A stretch of 64,000 nucleotides of DNA from positions 91,009 through 155,008 of the forward strand of contig JACONH010000001.1 in assembly GCA_014323835.1 (NCBI GenBank). The letters are read 5' to 3'. Positions 16,701-61,355 of the stretch are shown here, in pieces. Each line of letters opens with the position of its first letter. The stretch's first letter is position 1. The notes below the pieces were generated by a model, which saw only the letters and a program-made list of their open reading frames with translations, was not told the DNA's origin and made no database searches. Position numbers and translations under genes: made by a program. The DNA is from Alphaproteobacteria bacterium GM202ARS2 (GTDB taxonomy: Bacteria > Pseudomonadota > Alphaproteobacteria > GM7ARS4).

Positions 16701-17922
16701 TTTCCCGCTCCACCATCTTTTTGGCTGCTTTGATGGTCGGTGACGCATGGTGACGCTCCAGCTCAGAGTAAATAAACGGACGGAACAACTCCAATGCCAT
16801 ACGCTTAGGAATACCGCACTGGTGCAACTTCAAGTTGGGCCCGACAACAATGACCGAACGTCCCGAGTAATCGACTCGTTTGCCCAGTAAGTTTTGACGG
16901 AAACGACCTTGCTTGCCCTTCAGCATGTCCGACAAGGATTTCAGCGGCCGACGATTCGAACCGCTAATGACCCGCCCCCGCCGTCCATTATCGAACAGCG
17001 CATCGACCGATTCCTGCAACATACGTTTTTCGTTGCGCACAATAATACCCGGGGCACGTAGTTCCTCCAGACGCTTCAAGCGGTTGTTACGGCTAATGAC
17101 CCGCCGATACAAATCATTCAAATCTGAAGTGGCAAAACGACCGCCCTCCATCGGAACAAGAGGACGCAAGTCCGGCGAAATCACCGGCAAAACATCCATA
17201 ATCATCCACTCAGGACGAGAACCCGAACGGATAAACAGCTCAATGACCTTTAGACGCTTAATGTACTTACGCCGTTTCGTCTCTGATGCCGTCTCATAGA
17301 TGTTTTTACGCAACGTATCTCGTTCTCTTTCTAAATCAATGTCCTGTAGCATCGATTGCAACGCTTCCGCACCAATGGATGCCTTAAAGGCATCGCCGTA
17401 CTGGTCTTTGGCTTCTTCATACTCATTTTCACTGAGGAGGTGCCCGCGATGAAACTCTTTGATGGTGCCCGGCTCGGTCACAACATATTTCTCAAAATAG
17501 AGAATCGACTCAATCGCTCGCAACGTCATATCCACCATCAAGCCAATACGACTCGGCAGAGCCTTCAAAAACCAAATATGAGCCACCGGCGATTGCAAAA
17601 CAATGTGTCCCATACGCTCACGACGCACCTTCGACAACGTCACCTCAACGCCGCACTTCTCGCAAATGAGCCCTCGATGCTTCATGCGGCGATACTTCCC
17701 GCACAGACACTCGTAATCTTTCACCGGACCAAAAATCTTCGCACAAAAAAGACCGCCATTTTCAGGCTTGAATGTCCGATAGTTAATCGTCTCAGGCTTA
17801 ACGACCTCGCCGCGACTCCACGAACGTATGTCCTCAGGGTTAGCAATAGAGATGCTAATTTGATTGAACGGCGACTTGTCCGATGATTGCGGGAATTGCT
17901 GGATAAATCCGTTATCTGTCAT
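13714..17922 (-). CDS. rpoC: DNA-directed RNA polymerase subunit beta' with short acidic C-terminal tail
   Basis: 1402 aa; NADFDGD catalytic motif and zinc-ribbon CxxC motifs. Confidence 0.97.
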
Positions 17923-20900
17923 GACGTTTCTCCTGTGAGCGGGTCGCCTTCTTTCGGGCTTTCTTTCGGGTTGTCCCCCACGTTGTTTTCTGTGTCGTCT
18001 TCTGAGTGTGCTTCTGTCTCCTGAGACTCAGAAGAAGCTGGAGTCTCTGCCTGTGCGTCTGGGGCGGGCGCCGACAGAATCGGCGGGTTGTAACCCTCAA
18101 AGATAAGATCATCGTCATTTGACTCCTCGTCATCTTCGCCATGCTCGAGACGCACATTCAAGCCGAGAGAACGCAGTTCCATAACCAGAACGTTGAATGA
18201 TTCAGGCACGCCCGATTCGAAGTCGTGGCTCCCGCGCACAATTGTCTCGTAGGCTTTCGTGCGTCCAGCAACATCGTCCGACTTAATGGTCAACATTTCC
18301 TGCAACGTATGGGCCGCGCCGTAGGCTTCCAAAGCCCAAACCTCCATTTCGCCAAAACGCTGTCCACCAAACTGCGCCTTACCGCCAAGAGGCTGCTGAG
18401 TCACCAAGCTATACGTGCCAATCGAGCGCGCATGAATCTTATCATCAACAAGATGGTGCAACTTCAACATATAAATATAACCCACCGTGACAGGACGCTC
18501 GAAGATCTCGCCGGTCTGCCCATCAATCAATGTGACCTGCCCGCTACTTTTCAGACCCGCCGTCTTCAACATCGAGACAATATCATCCTCACGGGCACCA
18601 TCAAAAACCGGTGTCGCAAAAGGGATACCCTTCTCGAGAGTCTGTGCCAGTGCAACCATATCTTTGTCTCTCGTAAACCCTGCCTTCTTGAGGGCATCCG
18701 ACGTATAAGTCGACTCAAGAGTCGAGCGAATCGTCTGCAAACTCTTTTCCTGTACGTCTTGTTTCTGTCCCTGTTGCTGATAAGCCGTCACAAGCTCGGC
18801 AATACGTTTGCCGAGTCCCACCGATGCCCAGCCAAGATGAGTCTCTAAAATCTGCCCAACATTCATACGAGACGGCACACCAAGCGGGTTCAAAACAATA
18901 TCCACAGGTGTGCCATCTTGCGTGTACGGCATGTCCTCAATCGGCATAATCTTGGAAATCACGCCTTTGTTGCCGTGTCTGCCCGCGACTTTGTCGCCGG
19001 GTTGAATCTTGCGTTTGACCGCAACAAACACTTTGATTGTCTTGAGAACGCCAGGGGCTAACTCGTCGCCTTCGTGGATACGTTCTTCCTTGTTGCCAAA
19101 GTTTTTATCGTTGCGCGCCGTCTTTTCTTTCAGGTCTTTGCGCACCGCATCGATAGTCGTCATGGCTTCTTCGCTGACAACATCGATTTTCTTCCACAAA
19201 TCGGCATCCAACGTTGCCAGAATCTCTTCCGTCAACACAGTGCCTTTTTTCAAATCGCCCACAGTTTTGCTGACTTTTTGTCCTCGTAACAGCTCCTGCA
19301 TGCGTTGTCGATAGCCGCGCTCGAGAATATGGCGCACATCGTCTCGTTCTTTGACCAGTCGCCTAATATCGCTGTTTTCGCTGGCAACCAACCTGTCGTC
19401 TTTATCGATGCCCGCTCGTGAAAAGACGCGCACCTCAATGACTGTCCCCGATACGCCGGGCGGCAGACGCAACGAGGTATCACGCACGCTCGATGCCTTT
19501 TCGCCAAAAATAGCCCGCAACAGCTTTTCCTCAGGAGTCAAAGGCGTCTCGCCCTTGGGCGTTACCTTGCCCACAAGAATGTCGCCGGGATGCACCTCCG
19601 CACCCACATGAACAATGCCCACTTCATCCAACTGGCTTAAAGCATCCTCGCTGACATTGGGGATATCACGGGTGATTTCCTCGGGGCCCAGCTTGGTATC
19701 TCGCGCGGAGACATCGAATTCCTCAATATGAATCGATGTAAACACATCGTCACGCACGATGCGCTCAGAAATTAAAACCGAATCCTCAAAGTTATAGCCT
19801 TTCCATGGCATGAACGCCGCTAGCAGATTTCGCCCCAAAGCCAGCTCTCCCTTATCCGTAGACGGCCCATCGGCAATAATATCACCTTTGTCGAGTCGGT
19901 CGCCTCTTTTAACCAGTGGACGCTGATTGATACACGTATTTTGATTCGAGCGTTGGAATTTACGCAAGTTATAAATATCCACGCCAAGAGGCGATGACTC
20001 GGATTCACCTGTCGCTCTTATGACGATACGGTTGGCGTCCACTTGGTCTACGATACCGCCGTGGCGCGCCACCAGTGCCGCCGACGAATCGCGAGCAACA
20101 ACGCTCTCCATGCCTGTGCCGACCAGCGGCGCTTCGCTGACAATCAAAGGCACAGCTTGGCGTTGCATATTCGAGCCCATCAACGCACGGTTGGCATCGT
20201 CATTCTCCAAAAAAGGTATCAAAGCCGCCGCAACCGACACCAGCTGGCGCGGCGACACATCCATATAATCCACCTCGTGCGGCGGACACATGACCAACTC
20301 GCCGCCTTCACGGCAGACAATCAAGTCGCCCACCAGACGTCCCTTTTCGTCCACCTCAGCATTCGATTGCGCCACCTTACAACGCGATTCCTTATCGGCA
20401 GACAAATACTCCACGTCATGAAGGGCGCGTCCCTTGTCCACTTTGCGGTAGGGCGTTTCGATAAAGCCGTGATGGTTGACCCGCGCATAGGTCGCCAAAG
20501 AACTAATCAAACCAATGTTGGGCCCCTCAGGGGTCTCCACCGGGCATATCCGTCCGTAGTGCGTGGGATGCACATCGCGCACCTCGAAACCCGCTCGTTC
20601 CCGAGTTAAGCCACCAGGGCCTAGTGCCGACACGCGCCGTTTGTGCGTAATCTCCGACAAAGGATTGGTCTGATCCATGAACTGCGACAGCTGGGACGAG
20701 CCAAAGAACTCTCGTATCGCCGCAACAACAGGCTTGGCATTCATCAGGTCGTTGGGCATCATGCCACTGATATCACCGATAGACCCCATGCGTTCTCGTA
20801 TAGCCCGTTGCATCCGCAACAAGCCTTGTCGATATTGGTTTTCGAGCAACTCGCCCACCGCCCGCACTCGCCGATTACGCAGATTATCGATGTCGTCCAC

Positions 20901-22589
20901 ATCGCCTCGCCCATCTCGTAACGCTGCCAACGTCTCAATGACCTTGCAGATGTCCTCGATTCGCAGGGTTCTTTTCTCGTCGGGACACGTCATATCGAGT
21001 CGCTCGTTCATCTTGAAGCGCCCGACCTCGGACAAGTCATAACGTTCGTCCTCGAAGAGCATTTGCCTCAGCATTGCCCGTGCCGCATCAGGAGTCGGCG
21101 GCTCGCCCGGGCGTAACACCCGATACAGCTCGTTCAAAGCATCCTCAGGAGTCTTGTTTTTATCAACAGCAAGCGTATTGCGGAGCCAAGGGCCAACGCG
21201 CACGCCATCAATATCCAGCATCGCGATGCTCTTGCTTCCTGTCATCACCGCATCAATATCATCCAGATCGAGGGCATGACCCGCCTCAAAATGACGTCCA
21301 AAAGAATAATGAATGACAAAATCATCTTTCTCATTCGAATCAACCTCATGACTGTCGCCAGCAAGAAGAGGCACCAAGCGATTCATGACCTGCGTGCATA
21401 GCTTCAAGCAGTCTGAGTCGCCCTTTTTCATCTTTTTGCAGACGTCTTTTGCCGATACCTCAAGGGCTTTTTTCTTTTGCTTTTGAGCCGTCGCCAACTC
21501 GCCCAAAATGTGTCGGGCGATGTCGATATCTTCACCGTTGCTCTTTTTTGCTGCTGTACCCCCTTTCATCGATTCGAGCACAGCATCAATGTTTATGGGC
21601 TCAACAGGAATGTCAAGACTCGTTGCCAAATAATGCCCGTAAATGGCATCCATAGGCAGAATAACGTTCTTTAAGCCTTCCCCCACCAGCTTTTTGGCTT
21701 GCACCGGCGACAACCTTTTGCCCTTTTTGACCAGAACAGTGCCATTGCGAGCATCCACTAAATCATGAATAAGACGCACGCCAGCATAACGCTCGGCATC
21801 ATAGGGAATTTGCCAGCCCTCCTTCTTTTTCGTCCAGACGACCGTCTTATAGAAACGGCTGAGAATCTCCTGCTGGGTAAAGTGTACAGGTGCGTCCTTT
21901 TTGGACGCATCTTCTAAGTCGACACTCTTATCAAGAGCCATCAATAACGTCGAGACCAGTATTTTACGTTTACGGTCAATGCGCACATAAATCAGGTCTT
22001 TGACGTCAAACTCAAAATCGACCCATGAGCCTCGATAGGGAATGATGCGCGCCTCATACAACAACTTCCCCGACGCATGGGTTCTGCCTTTATCATGGTC
22101 GAAAAAGACCCCCGGGCTGCGGTGCATCTGCGATACCACCACTCGAGTGGTGCCATTGACAATAAACGTACCCTCATCGGTCATGACCGGCATCTCGCCC
22201 ATATAAACCGTCTGATCTTTGAATTCCCGCACCTTACGGGTGCCAGTTTCTTCCTCCGTGTCATAAATGCCCAAACGCAAATGCACCTTGAGCGGCGACG
22301 CATAAGAAATGCCGCGCCGCTGACACTCGGAAACGTCATATTTTGGCTCTTCGAATTCATAAGAGATAAAGTGCAATGTCGCACGCCTAGCGTAATCCTC
22401 AATCGGGAATGTTGACGCAAAAACCGCTTGCAGACCTTTATTGTTGCGTTTCTGCTTGGTAACGCCTTTCTGCAAAAACCGATCATACGACTGCTTTTGC
22501 ATGTCGATTAAATCCGGCATGGCAGCAATAAGAGGCAACCGCCCAAAAGATTTACGTAAAGATTGGCGCGTGAGAACTGTTTTGCTCAT
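17919..22589 (-). CDS. rpoB: DNA-directed RNA polymerase subunit beta. Unusually long at 1556 aa, with an internal lineage-specific insertion and a ~65-aa acidic C-terminal tail
   Basis: Conserved beta blocks ([23 protein letters not shown], rifampicin region). 4-bp overlap with rpoC. Confidence 0.97.
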
Positions 22590-27170: not shown

Positions 27171-27188
27171 ATGTTTCACGTGAAACAT
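27171..27188. promoter_or_regulatory. Perfect 18-bp palindrome ATGTTTCACGTGAAACAT (isolated copy 1), followed by TTGACT
   Basis: Read directly from the sequence. Lies 16 bp from the tRNA-Gly 5' end, in the divergent tRNA-Gly/tuf-ybaN intergenic region. Confidence 0.6.
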
Positions 27189-27269: not shown

Positions 27270-27287
27270 ATGTTTCACGTGAAACAT
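27270..27287. promoter_or_regulatory. Perfect 18-bp palindrome ATGTTTCACGTGAAACAT (isolated copy 2), preceded by TAGTATATA
   Basis: Read directly from the sequence. Same 18-mer as at 27171 and as in the 60153-60374 array. Confidence 0.6.
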
Positions 27288-27473
27288 TTTGCAAAAACGT
27301 CCACCATAAAACATTTTGTAGTATTTATGTATCACATGAGGTTTTTTTAGTCGAGCAACGTAAGGCGTGTTTGTTGTCAAAAATGTTCTTGCTCATCGTC
27401 TTTGCGTTTCGTATGGGTTTGTGATACAACCACTCCTCTTCTTTCGACACAAACAAGGGAAGGATACCAGTCG

Positions 27474-29283: not shown

Positions 29284-30227
29284 ATGGCAAATTGGTTGCA
29301 TGACGCAGTGTTCGAATATCTTAAGGAAAATTTTGGTACAAAGTTTACGACTCGGGAGGTTGGCATATCGATTCTGCAAAATCCGAAATATGAAAGAATA
29401 CTCGCTGAAAAATGGAAAAAATCTATACAGCCAACTGATACCTTTGGAGAAAAACTTATAATAATCTCAGCTGAGATATCTTCTTGGCACAAGGAATTCA
29501 TCAAAAAAAATCTCCTTATATTAAATCAACTGAGGAACGTCCACGTCGATACCATTACAGTGAATCTAATGATGACGATGAGTCTTCCTCTCTTCAAACA
29601 AAACAAGGTCGTAAAAAAGTAACAGAGCATGACCTTTACCCCAAGCTGACAAAATTTCTATGGAGGGAGTTCGAAATCAACAGCAAACGCATTGATGAAA
29701 GACAATCCAGTAACGTGGGAGGAACTAACGCGAACAAATGGCTTTATCCTGACCTTGTCGGCATAGAAAATCTCAGCCGAGATTGGCGAGATGATATAAA
29801 AAAAGTTGTTGAGGCTCATGAAGATAAAAAAGCCAAGCTCTGGTCTTTTGAAGTCAAACTCAAAATTACCAGCTCGAATGTTCGCGAGTATTTCTTTCAG
29901 GCAGTCAGCAATTCCTCGTGGGCAAACTATGCCTATCTGGTAGCCAGTGAAATATCAACCGCGCACGATGAAAGAGTGATGAAGGAATTACGCATGCTTT
30001 CCAGCCTACACGGTGTTGGCGTTATTTTGTTAAACTATGAAAATCCTGCTGAGAGTATAGTTAAAATACCCGCACAAGAACGCTCCTCTATTGATTGGAA
30101 TGTTGCTAATAGATTGGCGGAGTCCAGTAAAGACTTCGCCAAATATATCGAATCGGTGTTTGCTTTTTATAAGACGGACAAAATACAACCTGCTGATTGG
30201 GATAAAGTAGACCTAGATAGCGAGTAG
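29284..30227 (+). pseudogene. mrr: Mrr-like type IV (modification-dependent) restriction endonuclease, split by a frameshift in an A8 homopolymer (29503-29510). AT-rich relative to its surroundings
   Basis: Two overlapping ORFs, 29284-29622 (frame 1) and 29484-30227 (frame 3), join across the A8 run. The N-terminus resembles the Mrr_N winged helix. The C-terminus has a PD-(D/E)xK signature (YPDLVGIE...FEVKLK...QAVS) resembling Mrr_cat. Putative RBS GAGGAGATAGAAAG precedes the ATG. Confidence 0.6.
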
Positions 30228-30396: not shown

Positions 30397-32115
30397 ATGC
30401 GTCACGTTCTTTCTGACATACTGGCTCTGCGTCTGCACATGCGTCACATCATCGCGCCGCCCGATTTTAATCGTTGGCGCGTGCCGCCCGCCTCCATTGC
30501 CATTCATCTGTGCATTGGCTCGGTCTACGCCTGGAGTCTCTTCAATCCGCCCCTCTCCCGCGCCCTCGGCGTCGTTGCCCCTGCTGCCGATGACTGGCCC
30601 CTCGCCCACGTAGTATGGATTTTCTCCGTGGCTATCGTCAGTTTCGGTCTCGCCGCCGCTTTCGCCGGTAAATGGCTCGAAGACGTAGGGCCCCGCATGG
30701 TCGGTGTTGTCGCCGCCTGTCTATGGGGCGGCGGCTTTATCATCGGCGGATTTGGCATCCTCTATCACCAACTCTGGTTGATTTATCTCGGCTACGGCGT
30801 GTGTGGCGGATGCGGACTCGGCTTAGGTTACGTCTCCCCCGTTAGCACCTTGCTCCGTTGGTTCCCCGACAGACGCGGCATGGCAACCGGCATGGCTATC
30901 ATGGGATTCGGCGGCGGGGCTATCATCGGCGCACCCGCCATAGAAGCCCTGCTCGCCTTCTATCAACACATGCCAACCTATCTCGGCACTGCCGACACCC
31001 TAACCCTCAGCACCATCGAAGGCATCCGCTACGCTCAAACTTCCAACGGCACCCTCACAGAAGTCGTTCTCATCGGTGCCAAAGAAGCCGCCCATCTATC
31101 CACTGCCGTTGCTCCTGTTGCTCCCGGGGCGTACGTTGTCGGCACAGGCTCGACCGGGGCAGCAGCAACATTCTTTACCCTCGGAGTCGTCTATTTCTTT
31201 GTTATGGTAATTGCTGCGTTCTCCTACCGCGTGCCCGCGCAAGGATGGCAGCCGAAAAACTGGCAGCCCCCTGACGAAAGTCACGCCAAAAAACGCATGA
31301 TAACCAGCGAGCACGTCCACATCGACCAAGCCCTCAAAACGCCGCAGTTTTATCTGCTGTGGGTTTTGCTGTGCTTTAATGTATCCGCCGGCATCGGCGT
31401 CATAGGTGTCGCCAAAACCATGATGAGCGAAATCTTCGGCACAACCCTGCCCCATATTGTCGATGCTGCCTTCACCGCCCAATACGTCCTGATGATTAGT
31501 GTCTTTAATATGCTCGGACGATTCTTCTGGGCGAGTGCCTCCGACTATATAGGCCGTAAAGTCACGTATATGATTTTTCTTACCCTCGGTATTATCCTCT
31601 ATCTGTCGATTCCTTATACCGCCGAGCAAGTCAGCGTATCGCCCCATATTCAGTGGCTGATGATGTTCTACGCCGCCACAATGATAATCTTTACCATGTA
31701 TGGCGGCGGCTTTGCGACCATCCCCGCCTATCTTGCCGACATTTTCGGCACACGCTACGTAGGGGGCATTCATGGTAGGATACTGACTGCCTTAAGCGTC
31801 GCAAGTGTCCTAGGGCCCGTTGCTATCACCCAGCTGCGTGAACATTCGCGTATTCAAGCCATTGAGTCGCTGGCAACACACATCGACCCACGTCTGTTCT
31901 TACAGACCTTCGGGCAATCTATCGACCATCTAGGGATTCTCATCGAGGCAAAGACTGTCACCATTGCCTCGCTGATGGATATTGCCCCCATCGGCACCAT
32001 TGACCCGTCGCCGACTCTCTATAATACGACCATGTACGTTATGGCGTGTCTGTTGGCACTGGCGTGGCTCGCTAATATGCTGGTGCGCCCCGTGCACGCC
32101 AAGCACCACATGTAA
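30397..32115 (+). CDS. MFS transporter, oxalate/formate antiporter (OFA)-like family, paralogue 1 of 3
   Basis: 572 aa, 12 predicted TM segments. RWFPDRRGMATGMAIMGFGGG matches the OFA family. Confidence 0.8.
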   Translation: MRHVLSDILALRLHMRHIIAPPDFNRWRVPPASIAIHLCIGSVYAWSLFNPPLSRALGVVAPAADDWPLAHVVWIFSVAIVSFGLAAAFAGKWLEDVGPRMVGVVAACLWGGGFIIGGFGILYHQLWLIYLGYGVCGGCGLGLGYVSPVSTLLRWFPDRRGMATGMAIMGFGGGAIIGAPAIEALLAFYQHMPTYLGTADTLTLSTIEGIRYAQTSNGTLTEVVLIGAKEAAHLSTAVAPVAPGAYVVGTGSTGAAATFFTLGVVYFFVMVIAAFSYRVPAQGWQPKNWQPPDESHAKKRMITSEHVHIDQALKTPQFYLLWVLLCFNVSAGIGVIGVAKTMMSEIFGTTLPHIVDAAFTAQYVLMISVFNMLGRFFWASASDYIGRKVTYMIFLTLGIILYLSIPYTAEQVSVSPHIQWLMMFYAATMIIFTMYGGGFATIPAYLADIFGTRYVGGIHGRILTALSVASVLGPVAITQLREHSRIQAIESLATHIDPRLFLQTFGQSIDHLGILIEAKTVTIASLMDIAPIGTIDPSPTLYNTTMYVMACLLALAWLANMLVRPVHAKHHM

Positions 32116-32139
32116 TTTATTTTTTAGTGTTGCCCCATC

Positions 32140-33858
32140 ATGCGTCAGGTTTTTTCTGATATTTTGGCTCTGCGCCTTCATAAGCGTCACATTATTGCGC
32201 CGCCCGACTTTAATCGTTGGTGGGTGCCGCCTGCGTCTATCGCTATTCACCTGTGCATTGGCTCGGTTTATGCCTGGAGTCTGTTTAATCCGCCCCTCGC
32301 CCGTGCCCTTGGCGTTGTTGCCCCCGCCGCTGGCGACTGGGAGCTTGCCAGTATCGTCTGGGTCTTTTCTGTTGCCATCGTCTTTCAAGGTCTCGCGGCT
32401 GCTTGTGTCGGCAAGTGGCTCGAAGACGTGGGGCCCCGTATGGTCGGCGTTGTCGCCGCCTGTCTGTGGGGCGGCGGCTTTATCGTTGGCGGTTTGGGCA
32501 TACTCTATCACCAGCTCTGGCTGGTGTATCTCGGCTATGGCGTTCTAGGCGGGTGCGGAATCGGCTTGGGCTATATCTCGCCCGTCAGTATCTTGCTCCG
32601 TTGGTTCCCCGACAGACGCGGCATGGCTACAGGCATGGCTATCATGGGATTCGGCGGCGGCGCTATCATCGGCGCACCCGCCATAGAAGCCCTGCTCGCC
32701 TTCTATCAACAGATACCCACCTATCTCGGTGCTGCTGACACTCTGACCCTCAGCACGATAGAAGGGGTGCGTTACGTCCAAAACACCAGTGTCACCCTAA
32801 CAGAAGTCGTCCTTATCGGTGCCAAAGAAGCGTCTCAACTAGCAACACCCGCTCAGCCCGTTGCCCCCGGGGTGTATGTTGTCGGCACAGGTTCGACCGG
32901 CACGGCCGCGACATTCTTCACGCTTGGCGTTGTCTATTTCATCGTTATGATTATTGCGGCATTTGCTTACCGTGTGCCCGCTAAGGGCTGGCTGCCGAAA
33001 AACTGGCAGCCCCCTGACGAGAGTCAGGCAAAAAAACGCATGATGACGACACAGCACGTCCACATCGACCAAGCCATGAAAACACAGCAGTTCTATCTGT
33101 TGTGGCTCGTGGTGTGCTTGAATGTCACCGCAGGTATCGGCATTTTGGGCGTCGCTAAAACCATGATGAGCGAAATCTTCGGCACAACCCTGCCCCATAT
33201 TGTCGATGCTGCCTTTACCGCACAGTATGTCCTGATGATTAGCGTCTTTAACATGCTCGGACGATTCTTCTGGGCAAGTGCCTCCGACTATATCGGACGC
33301 AAAATCACCTACACGATTTTCTGTGTGCTCGGTATTTTCCTTTATCTGTCGATTCCTTATACGGCCCAGCACGTCAGCGCATCCCCGCATGTCCAGTGGC
33401 TGGTGATGTTCTATGCGGTAACCATGATGATTTTCACCATGTATGGCGGCAGCTTAGCAGCCATCCCCGCTTATCTTGCTGACATTTTTGGCACACGTTA
33501 CGTGGGGGGCATCCACGGCAGACTGCTCACTGCCCTCAGTGCTGGGGGTGTCTTGGGGCCCGTTGCCATCACCCAGCTGCGCGAATACACCCGTATTCAA
33601 TCTATAGAGTCTCTTGTTGCACGCATCGACCCGCAGCTGTTTCAACAAACATTCGGACAAACCATCGACCAACTGCCTCTTCTTATCGAAGCCCACACTG
33701 TGACCATTGCTGCCCTGATGGACATTGCCCCCATAGGCACCATTGATCCATCGCCGACTCTCTATAATACGACCATGTATGTTATGGCTTGTCTGTTGGC
33801 AGTCGCGTGGCTCGCCAACACGCTGGTGCGCCCTGTTCACACCAAACACCACATGTAA
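32140..33858 (+). CDS. MFS transporter, OFA-like family, paralogue 2 of 3
   Basis: Same length (572 aa) as paralogue 1 and near-identical to it. Confidence 0.8.
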   Translation: MRQVFSDILALRLHKRHIIAPPDFNRWWVPPASIAIHLCIGSVYAWSLFNPPLARALGVVAPAAGDWELASIVWVFSVAIVFQGLAAACVGKWLEDVGPRMVGVVAACLWGGGFIVGGLGILYHQLWLVYLGYGVLGGCGIGLGYISPVSILLRWFPDRRGMATGMAIMGFGGGAIIGAPAIEALLAFYQQIPTYLGAADTLTLSTIEGVRYVQNTSVTLTEVVLIGAKEASQLATPAQPVAPGVYVVGTGSTGTAATFFTLGVVYFIVMIIAAFAYRVPAKGWLPKNWQPPDESQAKKRMMTTQHVHIDQAMKTQQFYLLWLVVCLNVTAGIGILGVAKTMMSEIFGTTLPHIVDAAFTAQYVLMISVFNMLGRFFWASASDYIGRKITYTIFCVLGIFLYLSIPYTAQHVSASPHVQWLVMFYAVTMMIFTMYGGSLAAIPAYLADIFGTRYVGGIHGRLLTALSAGGVLGPVAITQLREYTRIQSIESLVARIDPQLFQQTFGQTIDQLPLLIEAHTVTIAALMDIAPIGTIDPSPTLYNTTMYVMACLLAVAWLANTLVRPVHTKHHM

Positions 33859-33929
33859 TTGACGGATAGCTCTTGTCAATGGGTGTGGTTGTCTTTACAC
33901 TTGCTTTATTTCTTTAGGAGTCCTGCGTT

Positions 33930-35648
33930 ATGCGTCAAATTTTTGCTGATATTTTAGCTCTGCGCCTTCATAAGCGTTATATCGTAGCGCCGCCCGACTT
34001 TAATCGTTGGTGGGTGCCGCCTGCGTCCATTGCCATTCATCTGTGTATTGGCTCGGTTTATGCGTGGAGTCTGTTTAATCCGCCCTTGTCACGTGCCCTC
34101 GGGGTCGTTGCTCCTGCTGCCAGCGATTGGCCCTTGGCGGATGTGGTGTGGATTTTCTCCGTTGCCATTGTGTGTTTGGGCTTTGCTGCTGCGTTTGCCG
34201 GTAAATGGCTCGAAGAAGTGGGGCCCCGTATGGTCGGCGTTGTCGCCGCATGCCTGTGGGGCGGCGGCTTTATTATTGGCGGATTTGGTATCCTCTATCA
34301 CCAGTTGTGGCTGGTGTATCTCGGCTACGGCGTTTTTGGCGGCTGCGGGCTCGGCTTGGGGTACGTCTCCCCTGTCAGCACCCTGATTCGCTGGTTCCCC
34401 GACAGGCGCGGCATGGCAACAGGCATGGCTATCATGGGATTCGGCGGCGGCGCCATGATTGGCGCACCATCCATCGAGGCTCTGCTCGCCTTCTATCAAC
34501 ATATACCCACGTATCTCGGCACAACCGATACCTTGACCCTCAGCACCATCGAAGGAATCCGCTACGCACAAAGTGCGAGTGGCACCCTAACGGAAGTCGT
34601 CCTCATCGGCGCCAAAGAAGCCGCTAACTTGACAACACCCCTTCAAACTGTCGCCCCGGGGGCTTATGTTGTCGGTACAGGCTCTACCGGGGCGGCGGCG
34701 ACATTCTTTACCTTCGGGGTCGTCTATTTCATTATCATGATTATCGCCGCGTTCTCGTATCGTGTGCCAGCAGAAGGCTGGCAGCCGAAAAATTGGCAGC
34801 CCCCTGACGAAAGTCAGGCAAAAAAACGCATGATGACGACACAGCACGTCCACATCGACCAAGCCCTCAAAACGCCGCAGTTCTATCTGTTATGGATTGT
34901 GCTGTGCTTTAACGTATCGGCTGGCATTGGCGTGCTCGGCGTTGCCAAGACCATGATGAGCGAAATCTTCGGCACAACCCTGCCCCATATTGTCGATGCT
35001 GCCTTTACCGCGCAGTATGTTTTGATGATTAGCGTCTTTAATATGGTTGGACGAGTCTTCTGGGCAAGCACCTCCGACTATATCGGACGTAAAGCCACGT
35101 ATATGATTTTCTTTACGCTCGGTATCCTTCTTTATTTGTCGATTCCCTATACGGCACAGCAAGTCAGCGTATCGCCGCATATCCAGTGGTTGGTGATGTT
35201 TTATGCTGCCACCATGATTATTTTTACGATGTATGGCGGTGGTTTTGCGACTATTCCTGCGTATCTTGCCGACATTTTTGGCACCCGTTACGTAGGCGGC
35301 ATCCACGGCAGATTGCTGACAGCGTGGAGCATGGCTGGCGTGCTGGGGCCTGTTGCGATAACGCAACTGCGCGAGCACACCCGTATTCAAGCCATAGAGT
35401 CGCTGGCAGAACGCATCGACCCCCAGCTGTTCTTGCAGACTTTTGGCCAAGCTATCGACCAGCTGCCCATTCTTATTGAGGCAAAAACTGTCACCATTGC
35501 TTCGCTGATGGAGATTGTGCCGATAGGGACGATTGACCCGTCGCCGACTCTCTATAATACGACGATGTATGCGATGGCTGGTTTGCTGGCGTTGGCTTGG
35601 ATAGCGAATGTTCTTGTGCGTCCGGTGCATGCCAAGCACCACATGTAA
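33930..35648 (+). CDS. MFS transporter, OFA-like family, paralogue 3 of 3
   Basis: 572 aa paralogue. Putative RBS TTAGGAG upstream. Confidence 0.8.
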   Translation: MRQIFADILALRLHKRYIVAPPDFNRWWVPPASIAIHLCIGSVYAWSLFNPPLSRALGVVAPAASDWPLADVVWIFSVAIVCLGFAAAFAGKWLEEVGPRMVGVVAACLWGGGFIIGGFGILYHQLWLVYLGYGVFGGCGLGLGYVSPVSTLIRWFPDRRGMATGMAIMGFGGGAMIGAPSIEALLAFYQHIPTYLGTTDTLTLSTIEGIRYAQSASGTLTEVVLIGAKEAANLTTPLQTVAPGAYVVGTGSTGAAATFFTFGVVYFIIMIIAAFSYRVPAEGWQPKNWQPPDESQAKKRMMTTQHVHIDQALKTPQFYLLWIVLCFNVSAGIGVLGVAKTMMSEIFGTTLPHIVDAAFTAQYVLMISVFNMVGRVFWASTSDYIGRKATYMIFFTLGILLYLSIPYTAQQVSVSPHIQWLVMFYAATMIIFTMYGGGFATIPAYLADIFGTRYVGGIHGRLLTAWSMAGVLGPVAITQLREHTRIQAIESLAERIDPQLFLQTFGQAIDQLPILIEAKTVTIASLMEIVPIGTIDPSPTLYNTTMYAMAGLLALAWIANVLVRPVHAKHHM

Positions 35649-37121: not shown

Positions 37122-39338
37122 ATGATGCGGATAGGGCCAATACAATCAACAGTTCTTTTATGCCTGCTTGTGCCGTTGCTTGCGGGCTTCAATAACCCTC
37201 TGGGAAGTGGCTTGCGTCCGCTTACGTCCACTGCTGTGACACCCACTTCTGAGGATGACAGCGTTGAGGAGAAGCCTTCTGCTGCGCAACAAGTGGATAA
37301 AGGTATCCCAGCCCGGCGCAAGTTTCGCTATAAGCGTCGCAAATTGCGTGTGCCTCGCTATCGTCCGCGTCCGCAGATTATGGCATCTCCGCTCAAAGCC
37401 CACGTTACCAAGCCAAAGACAATCAGCGGTATACACTATGACGATGTGGTTGCGCTGATGCACGCCGTCAAAAAAGAAGAATACAACGATGCCTATCGCT
37501 TGGCAAAAAAGATTAATGACCCCGTGCTGACCAGCTATGTTTTGTGGAATGGCTATCGCCTCTATTGGCTGAAGCATCCGCTAGACAAGCTGGAAGCGTT
37601 CATCGATGAGCATCGGCACTGGCCTGATATTGATAGGGTCATGATAGCCGCGGAACATGCCCTTGACTTGAAAGAGCATGAAGCCCACGAGGTATTGGCT
37701 TGGTTTTCTCGCTATCCGCCCATAAGTAATCTGGGTCATTTGAAGCGTCTCAATGCTTTGGGAAAAATGGATAAAAAGCAAGCCGAGCTATCTTACGCTC
37801 GCAAAATCTGGCGCGAGTATGACTTGATGCCGCAACACAAGGACTATTTTTTGCGCACGTATGCCCATGCTCTTTCTGATGAGGACTACCTCGTTCGACT
37901 ACAACGGCTGTTAGCCGAGGGGAATGCCCGAGATGTCAAAAACAAGATTAGTCAGATGCGCCCGCGCCTCCGCACCCAGCTCTATCGTCAGTGGCGCGCG
38001 GAACTGCCCCCGTTTGTTATCGGTCGGCTGATTGAGAACATGCCCTCCAGAGTTGTGGCAAAACACCCGCTGAGTGAGGCCCTCTTTGCCTTCCAAAAGA
38101 CCCGTGACTTCGAAGAAAGCTTCGATGCACTACAAGCCCTGCCCCACGCCGCCAACGACCACAAAGCTTGGTGGCAGGCTTATGAGGACTATATTCGTTT
38201 TCTCCTCTATGACGGCTACGTCGAGGAGGCTTATACCCTCGCCAAACAACACCGACAGGTCTGGAAAAAAGGCTTCTCCGAAGGAGAATGGCTCAGCGGA
38301 TGGATTGCTCTAAGCTTTCTCAATGACAGCTTATCGGCTTATCGTCACTTTGCCCACTTGTTTGATGAAGTCCACTCGAGTCTAGAGAAATCTCGAGCCG
38401 CCTATTGGACGTGGCGGTCTGCCCACGTCATGGGCGAGCGAGAGATTGCCCGTGAGTGGCTCAAAAAAGGGGCGCGTTATCCAACGACTCTCTACGGGCA
38501 GCTCTGTCGCGCCCAACTCAGCTGGAGCTACAAAGATATTTTTGTCGCGACCCCTCAGATCTCGCCGTTTGACCACCAGTCTTTCGATGCGGATCTAAAC
38601 GCCTTAAACCATGATGGGCTCCTTACGTTGCTCGGTTTTTTTGCGACCACCGATACTGTCGAGCAAGGGATGCCTTTTTTCCGCCATATGCTCTTTAAGC
38701 GTTCGACCAACGACCGCCAACGTGCCTACATCATTAACATGCTGATGCAGTTCGGTCATAGCGAGTATGCCGTCTATCTCAGCCGCAAGCTGGTCGAGCA
38801 AGGATACCCCGAACCACAAGGCGCGTACCCCATGATTAGCGATGACCACCTGCCCGCCTTAGGCATCGAAAAAGCCCTCGTGCTCAGCGTCATTCGACAA
38901 GAAAGCAACTTCATGGCCGTCGAAGCCGTCAGCCACGCCGGCGCCCTCGGATGGATGCAAGTCATGCCCGCAACCGCCGAATCCGTCACAAAAGACCTCA
39001 ATATTCCCTATTCGCAAACCCGCTTGCTCCACGACTACACCTATAACGTCACAATCGGCAGCTCGTATTTGCGCAGTCTCGCAGCACAATATGACAACTC
39101 TTATCCAATGATTCTTGCTGCCTATAATGCTGGCCCCAGTCGAGTGCGGGTATGGACACGCAAGTTCGGCGACCCCCGCCGCAACAATGTCAACAAAATC
39201 GACTGGATAGAAGCCATCCCCTTCTATGAAACCAGACACTATGTTCTCAAAGTGCTGTCGAACTTACAAGTGTATCGCCGTTTGCTGGCAGATTCGGACA
39301 AAAGCCCCCACCGCTTCAACACGTTTGGGGCCCCCTAA
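37122..39338 (+). CDS. slt: Soluble lytic murein transglycosylase (Slt70 family)
   Basis: The C-terminal SLT domain has the catalytic ES motif (VIRQESNFMAVEAVSHAGALGWMQVMPATA...AAYNAGPSRV) and a superhelical N-terminal region. Putative RBS GGTGGGAG precedes the ATG at 37122. Confidence 0.85.
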   Translation: MMRIGPIQSTVLLCLLVPLLAGFNNPLGSGLRPLTSTAVTPTSEDDSVEEKPSAAQQVDKGIPARRKFRYKRRKLRVPRYRPRPQIMASPLKAHVTKPKTISGIHYDDVVALMHAVKKEEYNDAYRLAKKINDPVLTSYVLWNGYRLYWLKHPLDKLEAFIDEHRHWPDIDRVMIAAEHALDLKEHEAHEVLAWFSRYPPISNLGHLKRLNALGKMDKKQAELSYARKIWREYDLMPQHKDYFLRTYAHALSDEDYLVRLQRLLAEGNARDVKNKISQMRPRLRTQLYRQWRAELPPFVIGRLIENMPSRVVAKHPLSEALFAFQKTRDFEESFDALQALPHAANDHKAWWQAYEDYIRFLLYDGYVEEAYTLAKQHRQVWKKGFSEGEWLSGWIALSFLNDSLSAYRHFAHLFDEVHSSLEKSRAAYWTWRSAHVMGEREIAREWLKKGARYPTTLYGQLCRAQLSWSYKDIFVATPQISPFDHQSFDADLNALNHDGLLTLLGFFATTDTVEQGMPFFRHMLFKRSTNDRQRAYIINMLMQFGHSEYAVYLSRKLVEQGYPEPQGAYPMISDDHLPALGIEKALVLSVIRQESNFMAVEAVSHAGALGWMQVMPATAESVTKDLNIPYSQTRLLHDYTYNVTIGSSYLRSLAAQYDNSYPMILAAYNAGPSRVRVWTRKFGDPRRNNVNKIDWIEAIPFYETRHYVLKVLSNLQVYRRLLADSDKSPHRFNTFGAP

Positions 39339-39387
39339 ACCCACCCTAGCCCCCTAAACCCACCCTAGCCCCCTAAACCCACCCTAG
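39331..39387. repeat. 3 x 19-bp perfect tandem repeat CCCCCTAAACCCACCCTAG. The first copy contains the slt stop codon
   Basis: Direct reading of the sequence. Sits between the convergent slt and TPR-SPOR genes. The minus strand is G-tract rich. Confidence 0.9.
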
Positions 39388-39401
39388 GCCCCCTCATCTT
39401 C

Positions 39402-49830: not shown

Positions 49831-51132
49831 CTAGCGTTCATAGTCAAACGTGTATTCTAGGGTGCCACCGATGCGTTTGCTTATCTCGTTCTCGTCATTT
49901 CTGATTTGCTGATAGCCGAGATGTAGACGCACCTGTTTGCCGACCCTATACCCTGCTGACATTCGAAAGGAGCCTTCGTTGTTGCCGCTTTGCCGATTAA
50001 CGTGGGTGTACTGCACCGCATAGAGCCAACGTTTGTCATAAAGCTGCAAAGCAATGGTGGTGAATTTGTGGTCGTTATTCGCCTCACCATCAAGAGAATC
50101 GATGCCAGCATACTCGAACACGATATGTCCTCTCGTTGCCCGAGAAAAACGATGCCCGTAATCTAAGGATAGCGACACGCTGTCCTCATCTTCGGCATCG
50201 GCGTCTTTTTCTGCCTTAGCTTGTTTGCTGTAGCCCAATCGGTAGCCGAGCTTACCAAAGACGTTTTCACCGCCTAGAGACAAAGCAAAAGAGCTCAAAT
50301 CCTCCGTATTGGCGGGTCCCCCATCGTTGAGACTACGATGCCCTCTTCGATAAAAGAGCGACTCACTAAACAAGGTTGTATCCGCAAAAAATGCCGATGC
50401 CTCGATGTCATGGTTGCCGAGATTGCGCGCGCCATCAAAAGACAACTTACCCCCTACGCCAATACGCTCACGGATTTCATATTCATGAACCGGCACATAA
50501 CCCGTAGCACCAACAAAACGATCTGGCGAAAAACCCACCGTCGGCGTAAATTTACCCACATACACCGCATACGTATCGTCATAACTATAAGTCAACCTTA
50601 AAGCCGCCAAAGAAACGGGATGATCTTGGAAAAAACTGTTGCGTGCACGTTCTTCTCCATGCTCGTCCTCATCTTCATGCCCGTGTTCATCGCCGTCTTC
50701 ATCACCATCTTCGTGGTGCTCTTCCTCTTCATGGTCGTTGCCACCACCATGCGCATGATCATGCCCTTGCGCAGCACCATCGAGAAAAATCTCGCCATCG
50801 ATAGACAAACGATGCTTGTTTTTCTCCCATAAACGCGCACCCCAATCCACATGACCATGAAGATAAAAGTCAACAATACGATCCTCTTCATGAGGAGCCG
50901 CCGTCACACCATCAAAGTGACCATTGAAATGACCATGAATAAATACAGCCTCGTCACCATGCCCTCCATGCCCCCCCCCGTGTCCATGGTCATCATGTCC
51001 CCCATGCCCCCCCCCATGGTCATGTCCCCCGTGTCCATGATTATCGTGTCCGCCTCCTGCTAAAACGGGCGTAGCCATAAGCCCCAACGTCACGCCTGCG
51101 AGCATGACAAAGTAACGCACAAAATAGCGCAT
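49831..51132 (-). CDS. Secreted His-rich/acidic metal-binding protein with probable beta-rich C-terminal domain
   Basis: The start MRYFVRYFVMLAGVTLGLMATPVLA (ATG 51130-51132, putative RBS GAGGAG) is a signal peptide. It is followed by HGHGGHDHGGGHGGHDDHGHGGGHGGHG and HEEEEHHEDGDEDGDEHGHEDEDEHGEE tracts. The C-terminal ~250 aa alternate in an OMP-like pattern. Confidence 0.7.
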   Translation of the reverse strand: MRYFVRYFVMLAGVTLGLMATPVLAGGGHDNHGHGGHDHGGGHGGHDDHGHGGGHGGHGDEAVFIHGHFNGHFDGVTAAPHEEDRIVDFYLHGHVDWGARLWEKNKHRLSIDGEIFLDGAAQGHDHAHGGGNDHEEEEHHEDGDEDGDEHGHEDEDEHGEERARNSFFQDHPVSLAALRLTYSYDDTYAVYVGKFTPTVGFSPDRFVGATGYVPVHEYEIRERIGVGGKLSFDGARNLGNHDIEASAFFADTTLFSESLFYRRGHRSLNDGGPANTEDLSSFALSLGGENVFGKLGYRLGYSKQAKAEKDADAEDEDSVSLSLDYGHRFSRATRGHIVFEYAGIDSLDGEANNDHKFTTIALQLYDKRWLYAVQYTHVNRQSGNNEGSFRMSAGYRVGKQVRLHLGYQQIRNDENEISKRIGGTLEYTFDYER

Positions 51133-51224
51133 GAGCGTATCTCCTCTATGTATGTAATAAGCCCCCTCTTCCAATCAATGAGTCTATCACAAATACTACA
51201 TGTATGCAAGTGTTTTTTTTTGAA

Positions 51225-58719: not shown

Positions 58720-60149
58720 CAACAGGGACGATTTACCCCGTTATTCTGTGTGGTGGACAAGGCACGCGCCTGTGGCCCCTGTCTCGTTACAATCATCCCA
58801 AGCAGTTCCTTGCTCTGTATACGGACGTAGCCCTGATTGTCGAGACCGCCCGGCGTTTTACCTCCGCGGCTTATGCTCCTTTGACCTTTGTTTGTCACCA
58901 AGAGCACCATGGCTTGCTGATAGCCACGCTCAAAGAGCATCTCACGGGTGCGCGTATCCTTCTCGAGCCTGTCGCTCGCAATACCGCGGCGGCGATTGCC
59001 GTTGCCACCCTTGCTCTTCAGCAAGCCCTTGACCCAAGCGATGACTCGACTCTTGTGTTCATGCCTGCAGACCATGTTTTTCCGCACCCAGCCCCGTTGC
59101 ATGATGCTATCAAAAAAGCCCAAGCCATCGCTGCCCACGACCATATTGTGACCTTTGGTATCACGCCCGATTCACCGCAGACGGGCTATGGTTACATTCA
59201 AAAAGGCACGCCCGTAAACAACCACCCAGCGAGCTATCACATCCAGCAGTTCCATGAGAAGCCGTCTCACGCCCAAGCTGACGCCTATATCGCCAGCCAA
59301 GATTTTTTCTGGAATTCGGGCCTTTTTTGTGCACGCCCCGCCACACTTGTGCGGGAATTCCAGCAGCATGCCCCTGATACGCTACGTCATGCCGAGCAAA
59401 GCCTAAAACAAGCAACGACACACCAAAACACGTATACCCTTGCCAAAGACCCTTACGGCTGTATCTCGCCCCAGCCCTTCGACCAAGCCGTCATGGAAAA
59501 AACCAGCAAGGGAGTCGTCATACCCCTTGACACCCCATGGAGCGACATCGGCGACTGGCAAAGCCTCTGGCAGATGAAACAAAAAGACCCACAGGGTAAC
59601 GTCCTGAAAGGACACACAACCGCCTCTGATACCCAAAACAGCCTCATTTACAGCACAGACAATAAACGCACGGTCGCTATCGGCATCAAAGACACCGTCA
59701 TCGTCAACAGCGACGATGCCGTTCTCGTCGCCAAAACGTCCATGACGCACCACATCAAGCCCCTTCTCGACAGCTTAACCGACAACAAGCAGTCGTACCT
59801 ACAGGCAAAAGAAGACCACAGACCATGGGGGTCGTATCGAATCATCGACCAAGGAGAAGGCTATCTCGTCAAACATATTACAGTCCATCCCAACGGGATT
59901 TTGTCGCTCCAATACCACCACCACCGCAGCGAGCACTGGACCGTCGTGCAAGGCGTTGCCTTCGTCACTCGAGAGGACGAAACCTTCCAACTCCGTGCCA
60001 ATCAATCCACCTATATTCCCCAGAAAGCCAAACATCGACTCGAAAACCGCAGCAAAAAAACCCTCAAACTCATCGAAGTGCAAATCGGCAAACACCTACG
60101 AGAAGATGATATTGTCCGCCTCGATGATGTCTATGGACGAGCAAAATAA
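58716..60149 (+). CDS. manC: Mannose-1-phosphate guanylyltransferase / mannose-6-phosphate isomerase (bifunctional ManC/CpsB type)
   Basis: IYPVILCGGQGTRLWPLSR nucleotidyltransferase N-terminus and C-terminal cupin; 477 aa. Confidence 0.9.
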   Translation: MTTGTIYPVILCGGQGTRLWPLSRYNHPKQFLALYTDVALIVETARRFTSAAYAPLTFVCHQEHHGLLIATLKEHLTGARILLEPVARNTAAAIAVATLALQQALDPSDDSTLVFMPADHVFPHPAPLHDAIKKAQAIAAHDHIVTFGITPDSPQTGYGYIQKGTPVNNHPASYHIQQFHEKPSHAQADAYIASQDFFWNSGLFCARPATLVREFQQHAPDTLRHAEQSLKQATTHQNTYTLAKDPYGCISPQPFDQAVMEKTSKGVVIPLDTPWSDIGDWQSLWQMKQKDPQGNVLKGHTTASDTQNSLIYSTDNKRTVAIGIKDTVIVNSDDAVLVAKTSMTHHIKPLLDSLTDNKQSYLQAKEDHRPWGSYRIIDQGEGYLVKHITVHPNGILSLQYHHHRSEHWTVVQGVAFVTREDETFQLRANQSTYIPQKAKHRLENRSKKTLKLIEVQIGKHLREDDIVRLDDVYGRAK

Positions 60150-60152
60150 AAA

Positions 60153-60374
60153 ATGTTTCACGTGAAACATCGCGCATAAAAAAAATTGTTTCGCGCGAAA
60201 CATCGCGCATAAAAAAAATTGTTTCACGTGAAACATTGTGACAGAAAAAAAATTGTTTCTCGTGAAACATTTTGACAGGACAATAAAAATTGTTTCACGT
60301 GAAACATCGCGCGTAAAAAAAATTGTTTCTCGTGAAACATCGCGCATAAAAAAAAATTGTTTCACGTGAAACAT
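60153..60374. repeat. Seven tandem units (period 33-37 bp) of the 18-bp palindrome [A/T]TGTTTC[A/G/T]CG[T/C]GAAACAT plus an A7-9-containing spacer. They fill the whole manC-fcl intergenic region
   Basis: Unit starts 60153, 60186, 60219, 60253, 60290, 60323, 60357. The palindrome is perfect in copies 1, 3, 5 and 7. Copy 2 has a CGCGCG centre. Copies 4 and 6 have CTCGTG. The spacers are CGCGCAT-A(n)-T or T(G)TGACAG-A(n). Confidence 0.95.
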
Positions 60375-60395
60375 TTTGACGGGAGAAGTTTGGGC

Positions 60396-61355
60396 ATGTC
60401 AGCTGAACCATATAGTCTTGCGGGCAAGCGTCTGTGGGTTGCGGGTCATACCGGCATGGTCGGTGCGTCTCTTGTGCGTCGTTTGCAGCGTGAGGATGTT
60501 GAGATTTTAACGGCGACCCGTCAGCAGTTGGATTTGACGTGCCAGCGTGATGTCGAGCAGTGGATAGGTGACAACAAACCGGATGGTATTTTTCTTGCGG
60601 CGGCGAAGGTTGGTGGTATTCATGCCAACGATACGTTGCCTGCTCAGTTTTTGTATGACAATCTTGCTATTCAGAGTAACGTTATTCATTCTGCTTATCG
60701 TCATGGTGTTGCTCGGTTGCTTTTTCTTGGTTCTTCGTGCATTTATCCTCGTGCTTGTCCGCAACCGATGCGAGAGGAGCATCTTTTAACGGGGCCCCTT
60801 GAGGCGACCAATCAGTGGTATGCCATTGCCAAGATTGCCGGTTTGAAGTTATGTCAAGCGTATAGCAAGCAATATGGCTGTTCTTATATTGCGACGATGC
60901 CGACCAATCTTTATGGGCCTGGTGACAACTATCATCCGTTGCATAGTCATGTGCCGGCGGCGTTGCTTCGGCGGTTCCATGAAGCCAAGCAGGCGCAAGC
61001 GGCGCGGGTTGTCGTCTGGGGTAGCGGCAAGCCCTTACGAGAATTTCTGCATGTGGATGATTTAGCCGAGGCGTGCATCTTTTTGATGAAGCAGACTGCT
61101 CATGCTGAGCCGGTCAACATTGGCACGGGTAAAGAAATATCGATTCGAGCCTTTGCCGAGACAGTGGCGCGTATTGTTGGTTATAGTGGTTCTATCGAGT
61201 TTGATAACACGAAGCCTGATGGCTCGCCGCGCAAGTTACTCGATGTCAGCCGTATGCGCGCCCTCGGCTGGACAAGCACCATAGACCTGCAAGACGGCTT
61301 GCAAAATGCTTATCAGTGGTTCATAGATAATCAAGACACTTTACGTAGCGTATAA
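60396..61355 (+). CDS. fcl: GDP-L-fucose synthase (GDP-4-keto-6-deoxymannose 3,5-epimerase/4-reductase)
   Basis: The start MSAEPYSLAGKRLWVAGHTGMVGAS has putative RBS GGGAGAAG upstream. SDR fold with conserved YxxxK (WYAIAK). The upstream part of the listed ORF (60357-) runs through the repeats. Confidence 0.9.
   Translation: MSAEPYSLAGKRLWVAGHTGMVGASLVRRLQREDVEILTATRQQLDLTCQRDVEQWIGDNKPDGIFLAAAKVGGIHANDTLPAQFLYDNLAIQSNVIHSAYRHGVARLLFLGSSCIYPRACPQPMREEHLLTGPLEATNQWYAIAKIAGLKLCQAYSKQYGCSYIATMPTNLYGPGDNYHPLHSHVPAALLRRFHEAKQAQAARVVVWGSGKPLREFLHVDDLAEACIFLMKQTAHAEPVNIGTGKEISIRAFAETVARIVGYSGSIEFDNTKPDGSPRKLLDVSRMRALGWTSTIDLQDGLQNAYQWFIDNQDTLRSV

Follow-up and report, generated by a model that had tools for sequence, protein, structure and literature searches.

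The 64-kb window (the whole stretch of 64,000 nucleotides that we analyzed) from GM202ARS2 carries an operon for fucosylation in which two genes, manC and fcl, are held apart by 246 bp of repeated palindromes, raising the questions of what these palindromes are, how they came to lie inside an operon, and what they may do there. GM202ARS2 is an alphaproteobacterial metagenome-assembled genome (MAG) of 1.83 Mb and 53% G+C from the sponge Lamellodysidea herbacea and belongs to Ca. Methylospongiales (PMC7313196). The operon runs in the order GT11 fucosyltransferase, manC, fcl, gmd, and GT10-like gene, and all of its junctions other than that between manC and fcl are overlapping or 3 bp apart. The window as a whole is core chromosome, containing ribosomal protein operons, fusA, rpoBC, tuf, and the genes for tRNA-Trp, tRNA-Gly, and tRNA-Tyr.

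Reading the sequence directly, we found the gap to consist of seven head-to-tail units of 33 to 37 bp (Table 1), with boundaries, the end of the manC open reading frame (ORF) at 60149 and the fcl ATG at 60396, that agree with the JGI gene call on the 139-kb contig Ga0189853_1000006, of which the window is a part. Tandem Repeats Finder reported a period of 33 bp in 6.9 copies with a score of 309, together with an additional higher-order period of 104 bp. A search of the 64-kb window for the 18-mer ATGTTTCACGTGAAACAT at up to 3 mismatches returned exactly nine matches versus 0.02 expected from shuffled sequences, seven of them inside the array and two of them isolated and perfect, at 27171 and 27270. 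When the inner 16-mer TGTTTCACGTGAAACA was used as the query, six of the nine copies were perfect and the other three were off by 1 to 2 bases. The array steps from center to center by 33, 33, 34, 37, 33, and 34 bp, and perfect cores (four of seven; copies 1, 3, 5, and 7) alternate in it with variant ones, the center being CGCGCG in copy 2 and CTCGTG in copies 4 and 6. The copy number comes from one metagenome assembly of the strain. A preliminary description of this DNA had laid out the gap, the seven units, their centers and spacers, and the two isolated copies, and we could confirm every coordinate and sequence in it. Its view of a dispersed-plus-tandem palindrome family that is not CRISPR was likewise upheld, with seven copies in the array and two outside it.

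Table 1. Window coordinates of the palindromes, their relics, and the adjoining genes
Feature	Position	Strand	Basis
parS-a, perfect, 16 bp upstream of tRNA-Gly, no sister counterpart	27171..27188		search and alignment
parS-b, perfect, upstream of ybaN (DUF454), orthologous in three sister contigs	27270..27287		alignment
Decayed parS relic ATGTATCACATGAGGTTT opposite the second sister parS in the alignment (6 mismatches)	27327..27344		alignment
manC, mannose-1-phosphate guanylyltransferase/isomerase; last 16 bp CGAGCAAAATAAAAAA	58716..60149	+	Pfam NTP_transferase and MannoseP_isomer
Whole array, seven units of parS plus 15- to 19-bp spacer	60150..60395		Tandem Repeats Finder and sequence
parS copy 1, perfect 18-mer ATGTTTCACGTGAAACAT (0 mismatches), 16-bp core 60154-60169	60153..60170		equals core of Caulobacter ParB probe
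parS copy 2 (3 mismatches to the 18-mer), core TGTTTCGCGCGAAACA, symmetric A>G / T>C at the parS/NBS specificity base	60186..60203		mismatch search
parS copy 3 (1 mismatch), 16-bp core perfect	60219..60236		mismatch search
parS copy 4 (2 mismatches), core TGTTTCTCGTGAAACA, one half-site altered	60253..60270		mismatch search
Spacer 4, TTTGACAGGACAATAAAAA; aligned 20-mer runs to the T at 60290	60271..60289	+	alignment with sister junction
parS copy 5 (1 mismatch), 16-bp core perfect	60290..60307		mismatch search
parS copy 6 (2 mismatches), core TGTTTCTCGTGAAACA	60323..60340		mismatch search
parS copy 7 (1 mismatch), 16-bp core perfect, 22 bp upstream of fcl ATG	60357..60374		mismatch search
fcl ribosome-binding region TTTGACGGGAGAAGTTTGGGC	60375..60395	+	homologous to sister manC 3' end
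fcl, GDP-L-fucose synthase, first gene downstream of the array, same operon	60396..61355	+	Pfam epimerase-type, gene call

The inner 16 bp of the palindrome are identical to the stated consensus of chromosomal parS, a 16-bp inverted repeat (TGTTNCACGTGAAACA), as in the chromosomal sites of Caulobacter crescentus, Hyphomonas neptunium, and Bacillus subtilis. This near-universal, centromere-like element of bacterial chromosomes is where the partition protein ParB (Spo0J), a dimeric helix-turn-helix CTPase, is loaded. The 18-mer is the parS of the alphaproteobacterium H. neptunium, and it is contained in full in the duplexes used for the CTPase assay and crystallography of Caulobacter ParB (GGATGTTTCACGTGAAACATCC and GATGTTTCACGTGAAACATC). 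A dimeric helix-turn-helix protein almost certainly binds the palindromes, and since their 16-bp core is that of consensus parS, this protein would be ParB rather than a regulator of the lux/tra type. We consider it very probable that all nine are chromosomal parS sites bound by ParB and that the seven-copy array is a lineage-specific amplification made in place. The element is a canonical parS, a known one, in a rare tandem arrangement and not a new kind of system. The preliminary description had proposed an operator array for a dimeric helix-turn-helix regulator of the fucose genes, similar in layout to tra/lux boxes; the dimeric sites stand, but the family and the purpose do not, given that the core is that of parS. 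A lux/tra-box operator was rejected for this identity and because nothing promoter-like was seen at the array on the + strand; the palindrome matches the tra box at about 8 of 18 positions, the likeness being confined to the ATGT/ACAT ends. A CRISPR reading was also dropped, as its defining features were lacking, and in the window and the sister DNA covered a REP or MITE reading is disfavored for want of theirs. Rfam at gathering thresholds gave three tRNAs only in the window and nothing at the array, and a check of the window for the Neisseria DUS gave no match. For annotation, the lesson is to check for TGTTTCACGTGAAACA before inventing new regulators.

Copies 2, 4, and 6 are all altered at position 6 in the numbering of Jalal et al., where parS and the Noc site differ, as they do at one other base (Jalal et al.), and they may bind ParB poorly on account of this altered discriminating base. 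The Noc-binding site NBS of Firmicutes (TATTTCCCGGGAAATA) belongs to a related palindrome family, from which the array variants differ in that they carry G or T, and not the C of NBS, at the one discriminating base that has changed, while keeping G at the other discriminating position. Noc is not known outside Firmicutes.

Parallel evidence on how such sites come and go was obtained from the two isolated copies. A search with EF-Tu identified a sister lineage at 97% identity, represented by three strain contigs from one ENA sample (L204, L205, and L206). Upstream of tuf, each of these contigs has two parS-like sites 57 bp apart, with CACGTG or CATGTG cores, which are flanked by ybaN (DUF454) on one side and a SocA_Panacea gene on the other. 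In the alignment, parS-b lies in a conserved block while the surrounding intergenic DNA has diverged, whereas parS-a aligns with non-parS sequence; parS-b is thus the one site conserved despite diverging flanks, and the array and parS-a are lineage specific. The sister's other site is matched in the window by a degenerate sequence at 27327-27344, which points to the loss of an ancestral centromere site. Taken from these alignments, one site appears to have been kept, one lost, and eight gained within the clade, i.e., parS turnover. No parS was found near tuf in the lineages at 89 to 93% EF-Tu identity. Within the window, parS-like sites occur at three loci only, and the sister DNA (21 kb plus three contigs of 12 to 21 kb) contains the orthologous pair and no other parS. 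The isolated copies had earlier been placed beside tRNA-Gly and tuf, which is correct as a location, but the association with tRNA-Gly is incidental, the conserved neighbor being ybaN. As a separate observation, the SocA_Panacea gene and a 115-aa ORF, which together resemble a toxin-antitoxin pair, are inserted between the parS pair and tuf in the sister contigs (L204 8835-9712, L205, and L206), and this insertion is missing from the window.

The history of the array itself could be read from the corresponding operon of a relative. Among 5.8 billion proteins, ManC had a single close relative (P0002; 71% identity), encoded on a contig (L202) that is syntenic with the window from the CitMHS transporter through the fucosyltransferases. 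In this sister operon, the last 8 bp of manC are shared with fcl, leaving no spacer, and 21 kb of its DNA contained no parS-like site at up to 3 mismatches. The sister manC-fcl junction is GTTTACGGGAGAAGCAAAAATCATG (aligned stretch, TTTACGGGAGAAGCAAAAAT), in which the 3' end of manC doubles as the fcl ribosome-binding site (RBS). The sequence before the fcl ATG in the window, TTTGACGGGAGAAG, is identical to the sister's TTT-ACGGGAGAAG at 13 of 14 positions, a match that none of 2,000 shuffles equaled. Spacer 4 (TTTGACAGGACAATAAAAAT) aligns end to end with the undisrupted sister junction (2 of 2,000 shuffles as good), and the commoner spacers, CGCGCAT-A8-T, match the last 16 bp of manC (26 to 32 of 2,000 shuffles as good). 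Spacer 4 accordingly reads as a relic copy of the ancestral junction between the manC 3' end and the fcl RBS, and every spacer is built from the array's own right and left flanks, the pattern to be expected from unequal crossing-over or slippage between adjacent parS copies. Since the spacers copy these flanks, the array grew by tandem duplication where it stands. The phased A-tracts reproduce the A-rich tail of manC and thus need no function of their own. The overlap of manC and fcl in the sister, free of any spacer, also puts the array outside the ancestral regulation of the fucose genes. A derivation of parS from the manC codons GAAGACGTTTACG was considered and dropped, being not above chance. 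A metagenome scan with Fcl gave 80 loci, all at 66% identity or less and none with parS; fcl is too conserved for such a scan to pull out the close relatives.

We then asked whether the genes of a partition system accompany the array. Searches with phmmer, using two ParB queries and one ParA query, found neither protein in the window or in contigs L202, L203, and L204; a regular-expression search for ParB motifs gave no match, and ParB is not mentioned in the supplement of the source paper (PMC7313196). The array is without parAB within 60 kb on one side and over the 3.3 kb to the contig end on the other. This distance is not exceptional, because about 40% of the close parS clusters among the matches listed in our survey (see below) likewise lack ParA/ParB in the same 8 kb. 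GC skew was negative in nearly every 2-kb bin across the window, so neither an origin nor a terminus is expected inside it; the ribosomal and rpoBC genes lie on the presumed leading (minus) strand, and oriC would be located beyond the high-coordinate end.

To place the arrangement among others, one genome per species was scanned for two parS within 10 to 40 bp, yielding at least 120 loci from many phyla. The maximum number of sites per 400 bp among the 120 loci listed was 2 in 86 loci, 3 in 27, 4 in 3, 5 in 2, 7 in 1, and 8 in 1. Arrays of at least five parS among these matches were found at four loci (L017, L085, L096, and L105), all of them on Clostridia chromosomes (MAGs), each with 5 to 8 canonical parS in one intergenic region at a spacing of 33 to 47 bp. 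All four adjoin rsmG (gidB), and parA-parB was confirmed beside two; three of the four are at the classic origin-proximal partition locus, L096 being confirmed for rsmG only. IMG/VR contigs showed a similar distribution of cluster sizes, with up to five sites. The spacing of close parS pairs at 240 loci was broad, with redundant lineages dominating and no clear helical-phase rule. By these counts, the seven-copy array would sit in the upper tail, rare but not unique, with precedents in sequence data, although our literature search found no description of natural chromosomal tandem parS arrays.

Like chromosomal parS elsewhere, the copies are clustered within tens of kilobases, and the sister lineage has kept at least one of them; unlike the usual chromosomal sites, which are mostly single and dispersed over kilobases, seven of them follow one another directly within 246 bp of a GDP-fucose operon that has no parAB nearby. 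In the sopC centromere of F, a 43-bp unit that includes an inverted repeat bound by SopB is repeated in tandem ten to twelve times, and the units act together as one centromere (PMC7205306). The array shares with it the tandem direct repeats with one ParB-family palindrome apiece, but it is chromosomal, has the universal parS sequence, and does not lie beside a partition operon. Neither an own parA-parB operon nor an extrachromosomal replicon, as would be typical of plasmids, was seen, the genes around the array being core chromosomal ones. In contrast to the Clostridia arrays, the present one lies within an unrelated operon for biosynthesis and has a recent origin that can be traced.

Several other clusters were noted. 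The 404-kb Clostridium perfringens plasmid pJFP838A (L331 5012-5136; NZ_CP013615.1 7546-7681) has four parS-like sites at 34- to 36-bp spacing, much as in the present array, two each of ATGTTTAACGTGAAACAT and ATGTTTCACATGAAACAT, in an unannotated intergenic region beside tmk and a gene for a helix-turn-helix regulator. In many species of Collinsella, a canonical parS triplet has a spacing of exactly 39 bp, with a fourth site 2 to 5 kb off (L024, L029, L037, L040, L041, L045, L050, L053, L059, L075, L079, and others). A contig from a MAG labeled Nitrosopumilus (archaeal) contains four canonical bacterial parS within 300 bp (L062 3246-3548), perhaps because it was misbinned or belongs to a mobile element.

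On the best-supported reading, the array would be a multi-site loading hub for ParB. ParB dimers would nucleate on each 16-bp parS, bind CTP, and close into sliding clamps that spread along the neighboring DNA to form a partition complex, which would be moved by ParA and would load SMC. The first parS would have arisen at the manC-fcl junction of the formerly overlapping operon, and the unit of parS plus about 17 to 20 bp of junction would then have multiplied in place via unequal crossing-over or slippage, retaining the fcl RBS and copying the A-rich manC tail into each spacer. With four perfect cores among its seven adjacent sites, the array would act as a hub of high-rate ParB loading similar to the iterated centromeres of plasmids, and any effect on the transcription of fcl, gmd, and the fucosyltransferase gene would be a by-product of ParB occupancy or mRNA structure. 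In single-molecule experiments in vitro, adding parS copies increased both the loading of ParB clamps and the force of condensation, and a tweezers assay needed 5 to 7 copies (PMC8299390).

The array might instead be a functionless by-product, formed when replication slippage in the small genome of a symbiont multiplied one parS, or a palindrome that resembled parS by chance; it would then be neither useful nor harmful and would leave segregation to the isolated conserved site. We regard this as unlikely, though deserving serious consideration. Its absence from the one close relative means that the clade does not require the array and that it could be a neutral expansion, and the spacers record simple duplication in place. 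Every second copy is mutated at the specificity base, and one parS is enough for segregation in several species (PMC7333895). However, four of the seven 16-mers have stayed perfect even as several spacer positions diverged, and copy 2 is altered symmetrically in both half-sites such that the palindrome is preserved. Moreover, if ParB is present, the array would not be biochemically inert, as ParB would load on it regardless of selection. A regulatory device, in which a roadblock or silencer formed by ParB or another helix-turn-helix protein, or else mRNA structure, tunes fcl, gmd, and the fucosyltransferase gene relative to manC, seems to us distinctly improbable. It would fit with the array interrupting an otherwise tightly overlapping operon (GT11-manC-fcl-gmd-GT10) and with the + strand transcript of the array folding far better than shuffled sequences (z = -6.3). 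Effects of ParB are known in Pseudomonas aeruginosa and for P1. In Streptococcus pneumoniae, ParB spreading from a parS site is reported to affect competence development (PMC4488948). On the other hand, no promoter-like site was found on the + strand in or near the array, none reaching at least 9 of 12 matches in the scan of the array, and a TTGACA in spacer 4, inspected by hand, has no usable -10. The same motif also occurs at an unrelated conserved locus, and the resemblance to lux/tra boxes stops at ATGT...ACAT. Elsewhere, parS sites often lie inside genes without strong polar effects. With neither a promoter-like nor a terminator-like site on the + strand of the array, read-through from manC is expected. 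We find it less likely again that the array is a ParB-occupied regulator within the operon that ties the expression of fucosylated (Lewis-like) glycans to ParB occupancy, the cell cycle, or repeat number; if true, a host-associated bacterium would have recruited a centromere site, placed between manC and the fucose-specific genes, to regulate an operon from within.

Two further readings concern the repeats as such. A slippage-prone phase-variation switch for the fucosylation genes, or a copy number that is an artifact of short-read assembly, is highly improbable in our estimation: tandem 33-bp units and A8-A9 runs are prone to slippage in principle and a single assembly backs the copy number, but neither coding sequence nor a detected promoter contains the repeats, so that a change in length has no obvious on/off consequence, and the units differ in their cores and spacers, which anchors the assembly. 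The preliminary description had also suggested that the minus strand forms seven stacked weak intrinsic terminators, each a 7-bp-stem hairpin followed by U7-9, that would block antisense transcription into manC, and this we hardly credit at all. Every unit does read as a hairpin and then a T-run on that strand, and a weak promoter-like minus-strand site at 60402-60373 points into the array. Nevertheless, the scan of both strands gave nothing terminator-like within the array, and no unit qualified. Folding one minus-strand unit, as had been proposed, gave a stem of 6 bp and -4.7 kcal/mol, no more stable than shuffled sequence (z of about -0.5 to -0.8 for the unit hairpins; 41 to 55 of 200 shuffles at least as stable). 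The T-runs, besides, are accounted for as copies of the A-rich manC tail, and they are missing from the isolated copies and from the arrays of other genomes.

The reasons for the wide range of parS numbers (1 to more than 20) and for the clustering of the sites are open questions of the ParABS field (PMC7333895). The locus is a natural example of the gain of parS sites with the states before and after both visible: the sister presents the undisrupted junction, the spacers the record of local duplication, and the neighboring locus one site kept, one decayed, and one gained. Such keeping, loss, and gain, along with an array whose origin is traceable, suggest that parS sites can turn over quickly, and the traceable array suggests that parS may be amplified into a plasmid-like iterated centromere on a chromosome, even inside an operon.

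Several other features of the window were noted. Three tandem paralogous genes for 572-aa MFS_1 transporters occupy 30397-35648, where two are present in the sister lineage. A variable island beside tRNA-Tyr separates the MFS genes from MipA (window 29484-30227, L204 2491-6816, and L205 4101-6771) and contains a 247-aa ORF without a Pfam match in the window and an SNF2 helicase with NOV_C, or two N6_N4 methyltransferase-HNH genes, in the sister strains; it may be a hot spot for defense genes. The rpoB ORF (17919-22589) is unusually long at 1556 aa, compared with 1538 aa in the sister and 1391 aa in a relative at 89% EF-Tu identity. Ribosomal proteins L15 (228 aa; 361-1047) and S5 (250 aa; 1242-1994) carry long charged low-complexity extensions, S5 being 407 aa in the relative at 89% EF-Tu identity. 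A near-perfect 19-bp tandem repeat, GCCCCCTAAACCCACCCTA, is present in 3.4 copies at 39330-39394, between an SLT-domain gene and a TPR/SPOR gene. Finally, a 36-bp repeat rich in CATG and C-runs at 50955-51036, inside a weakly porin-like ORF (49831-51174, minus strand), would encode a Met/Gly-rich repeat.
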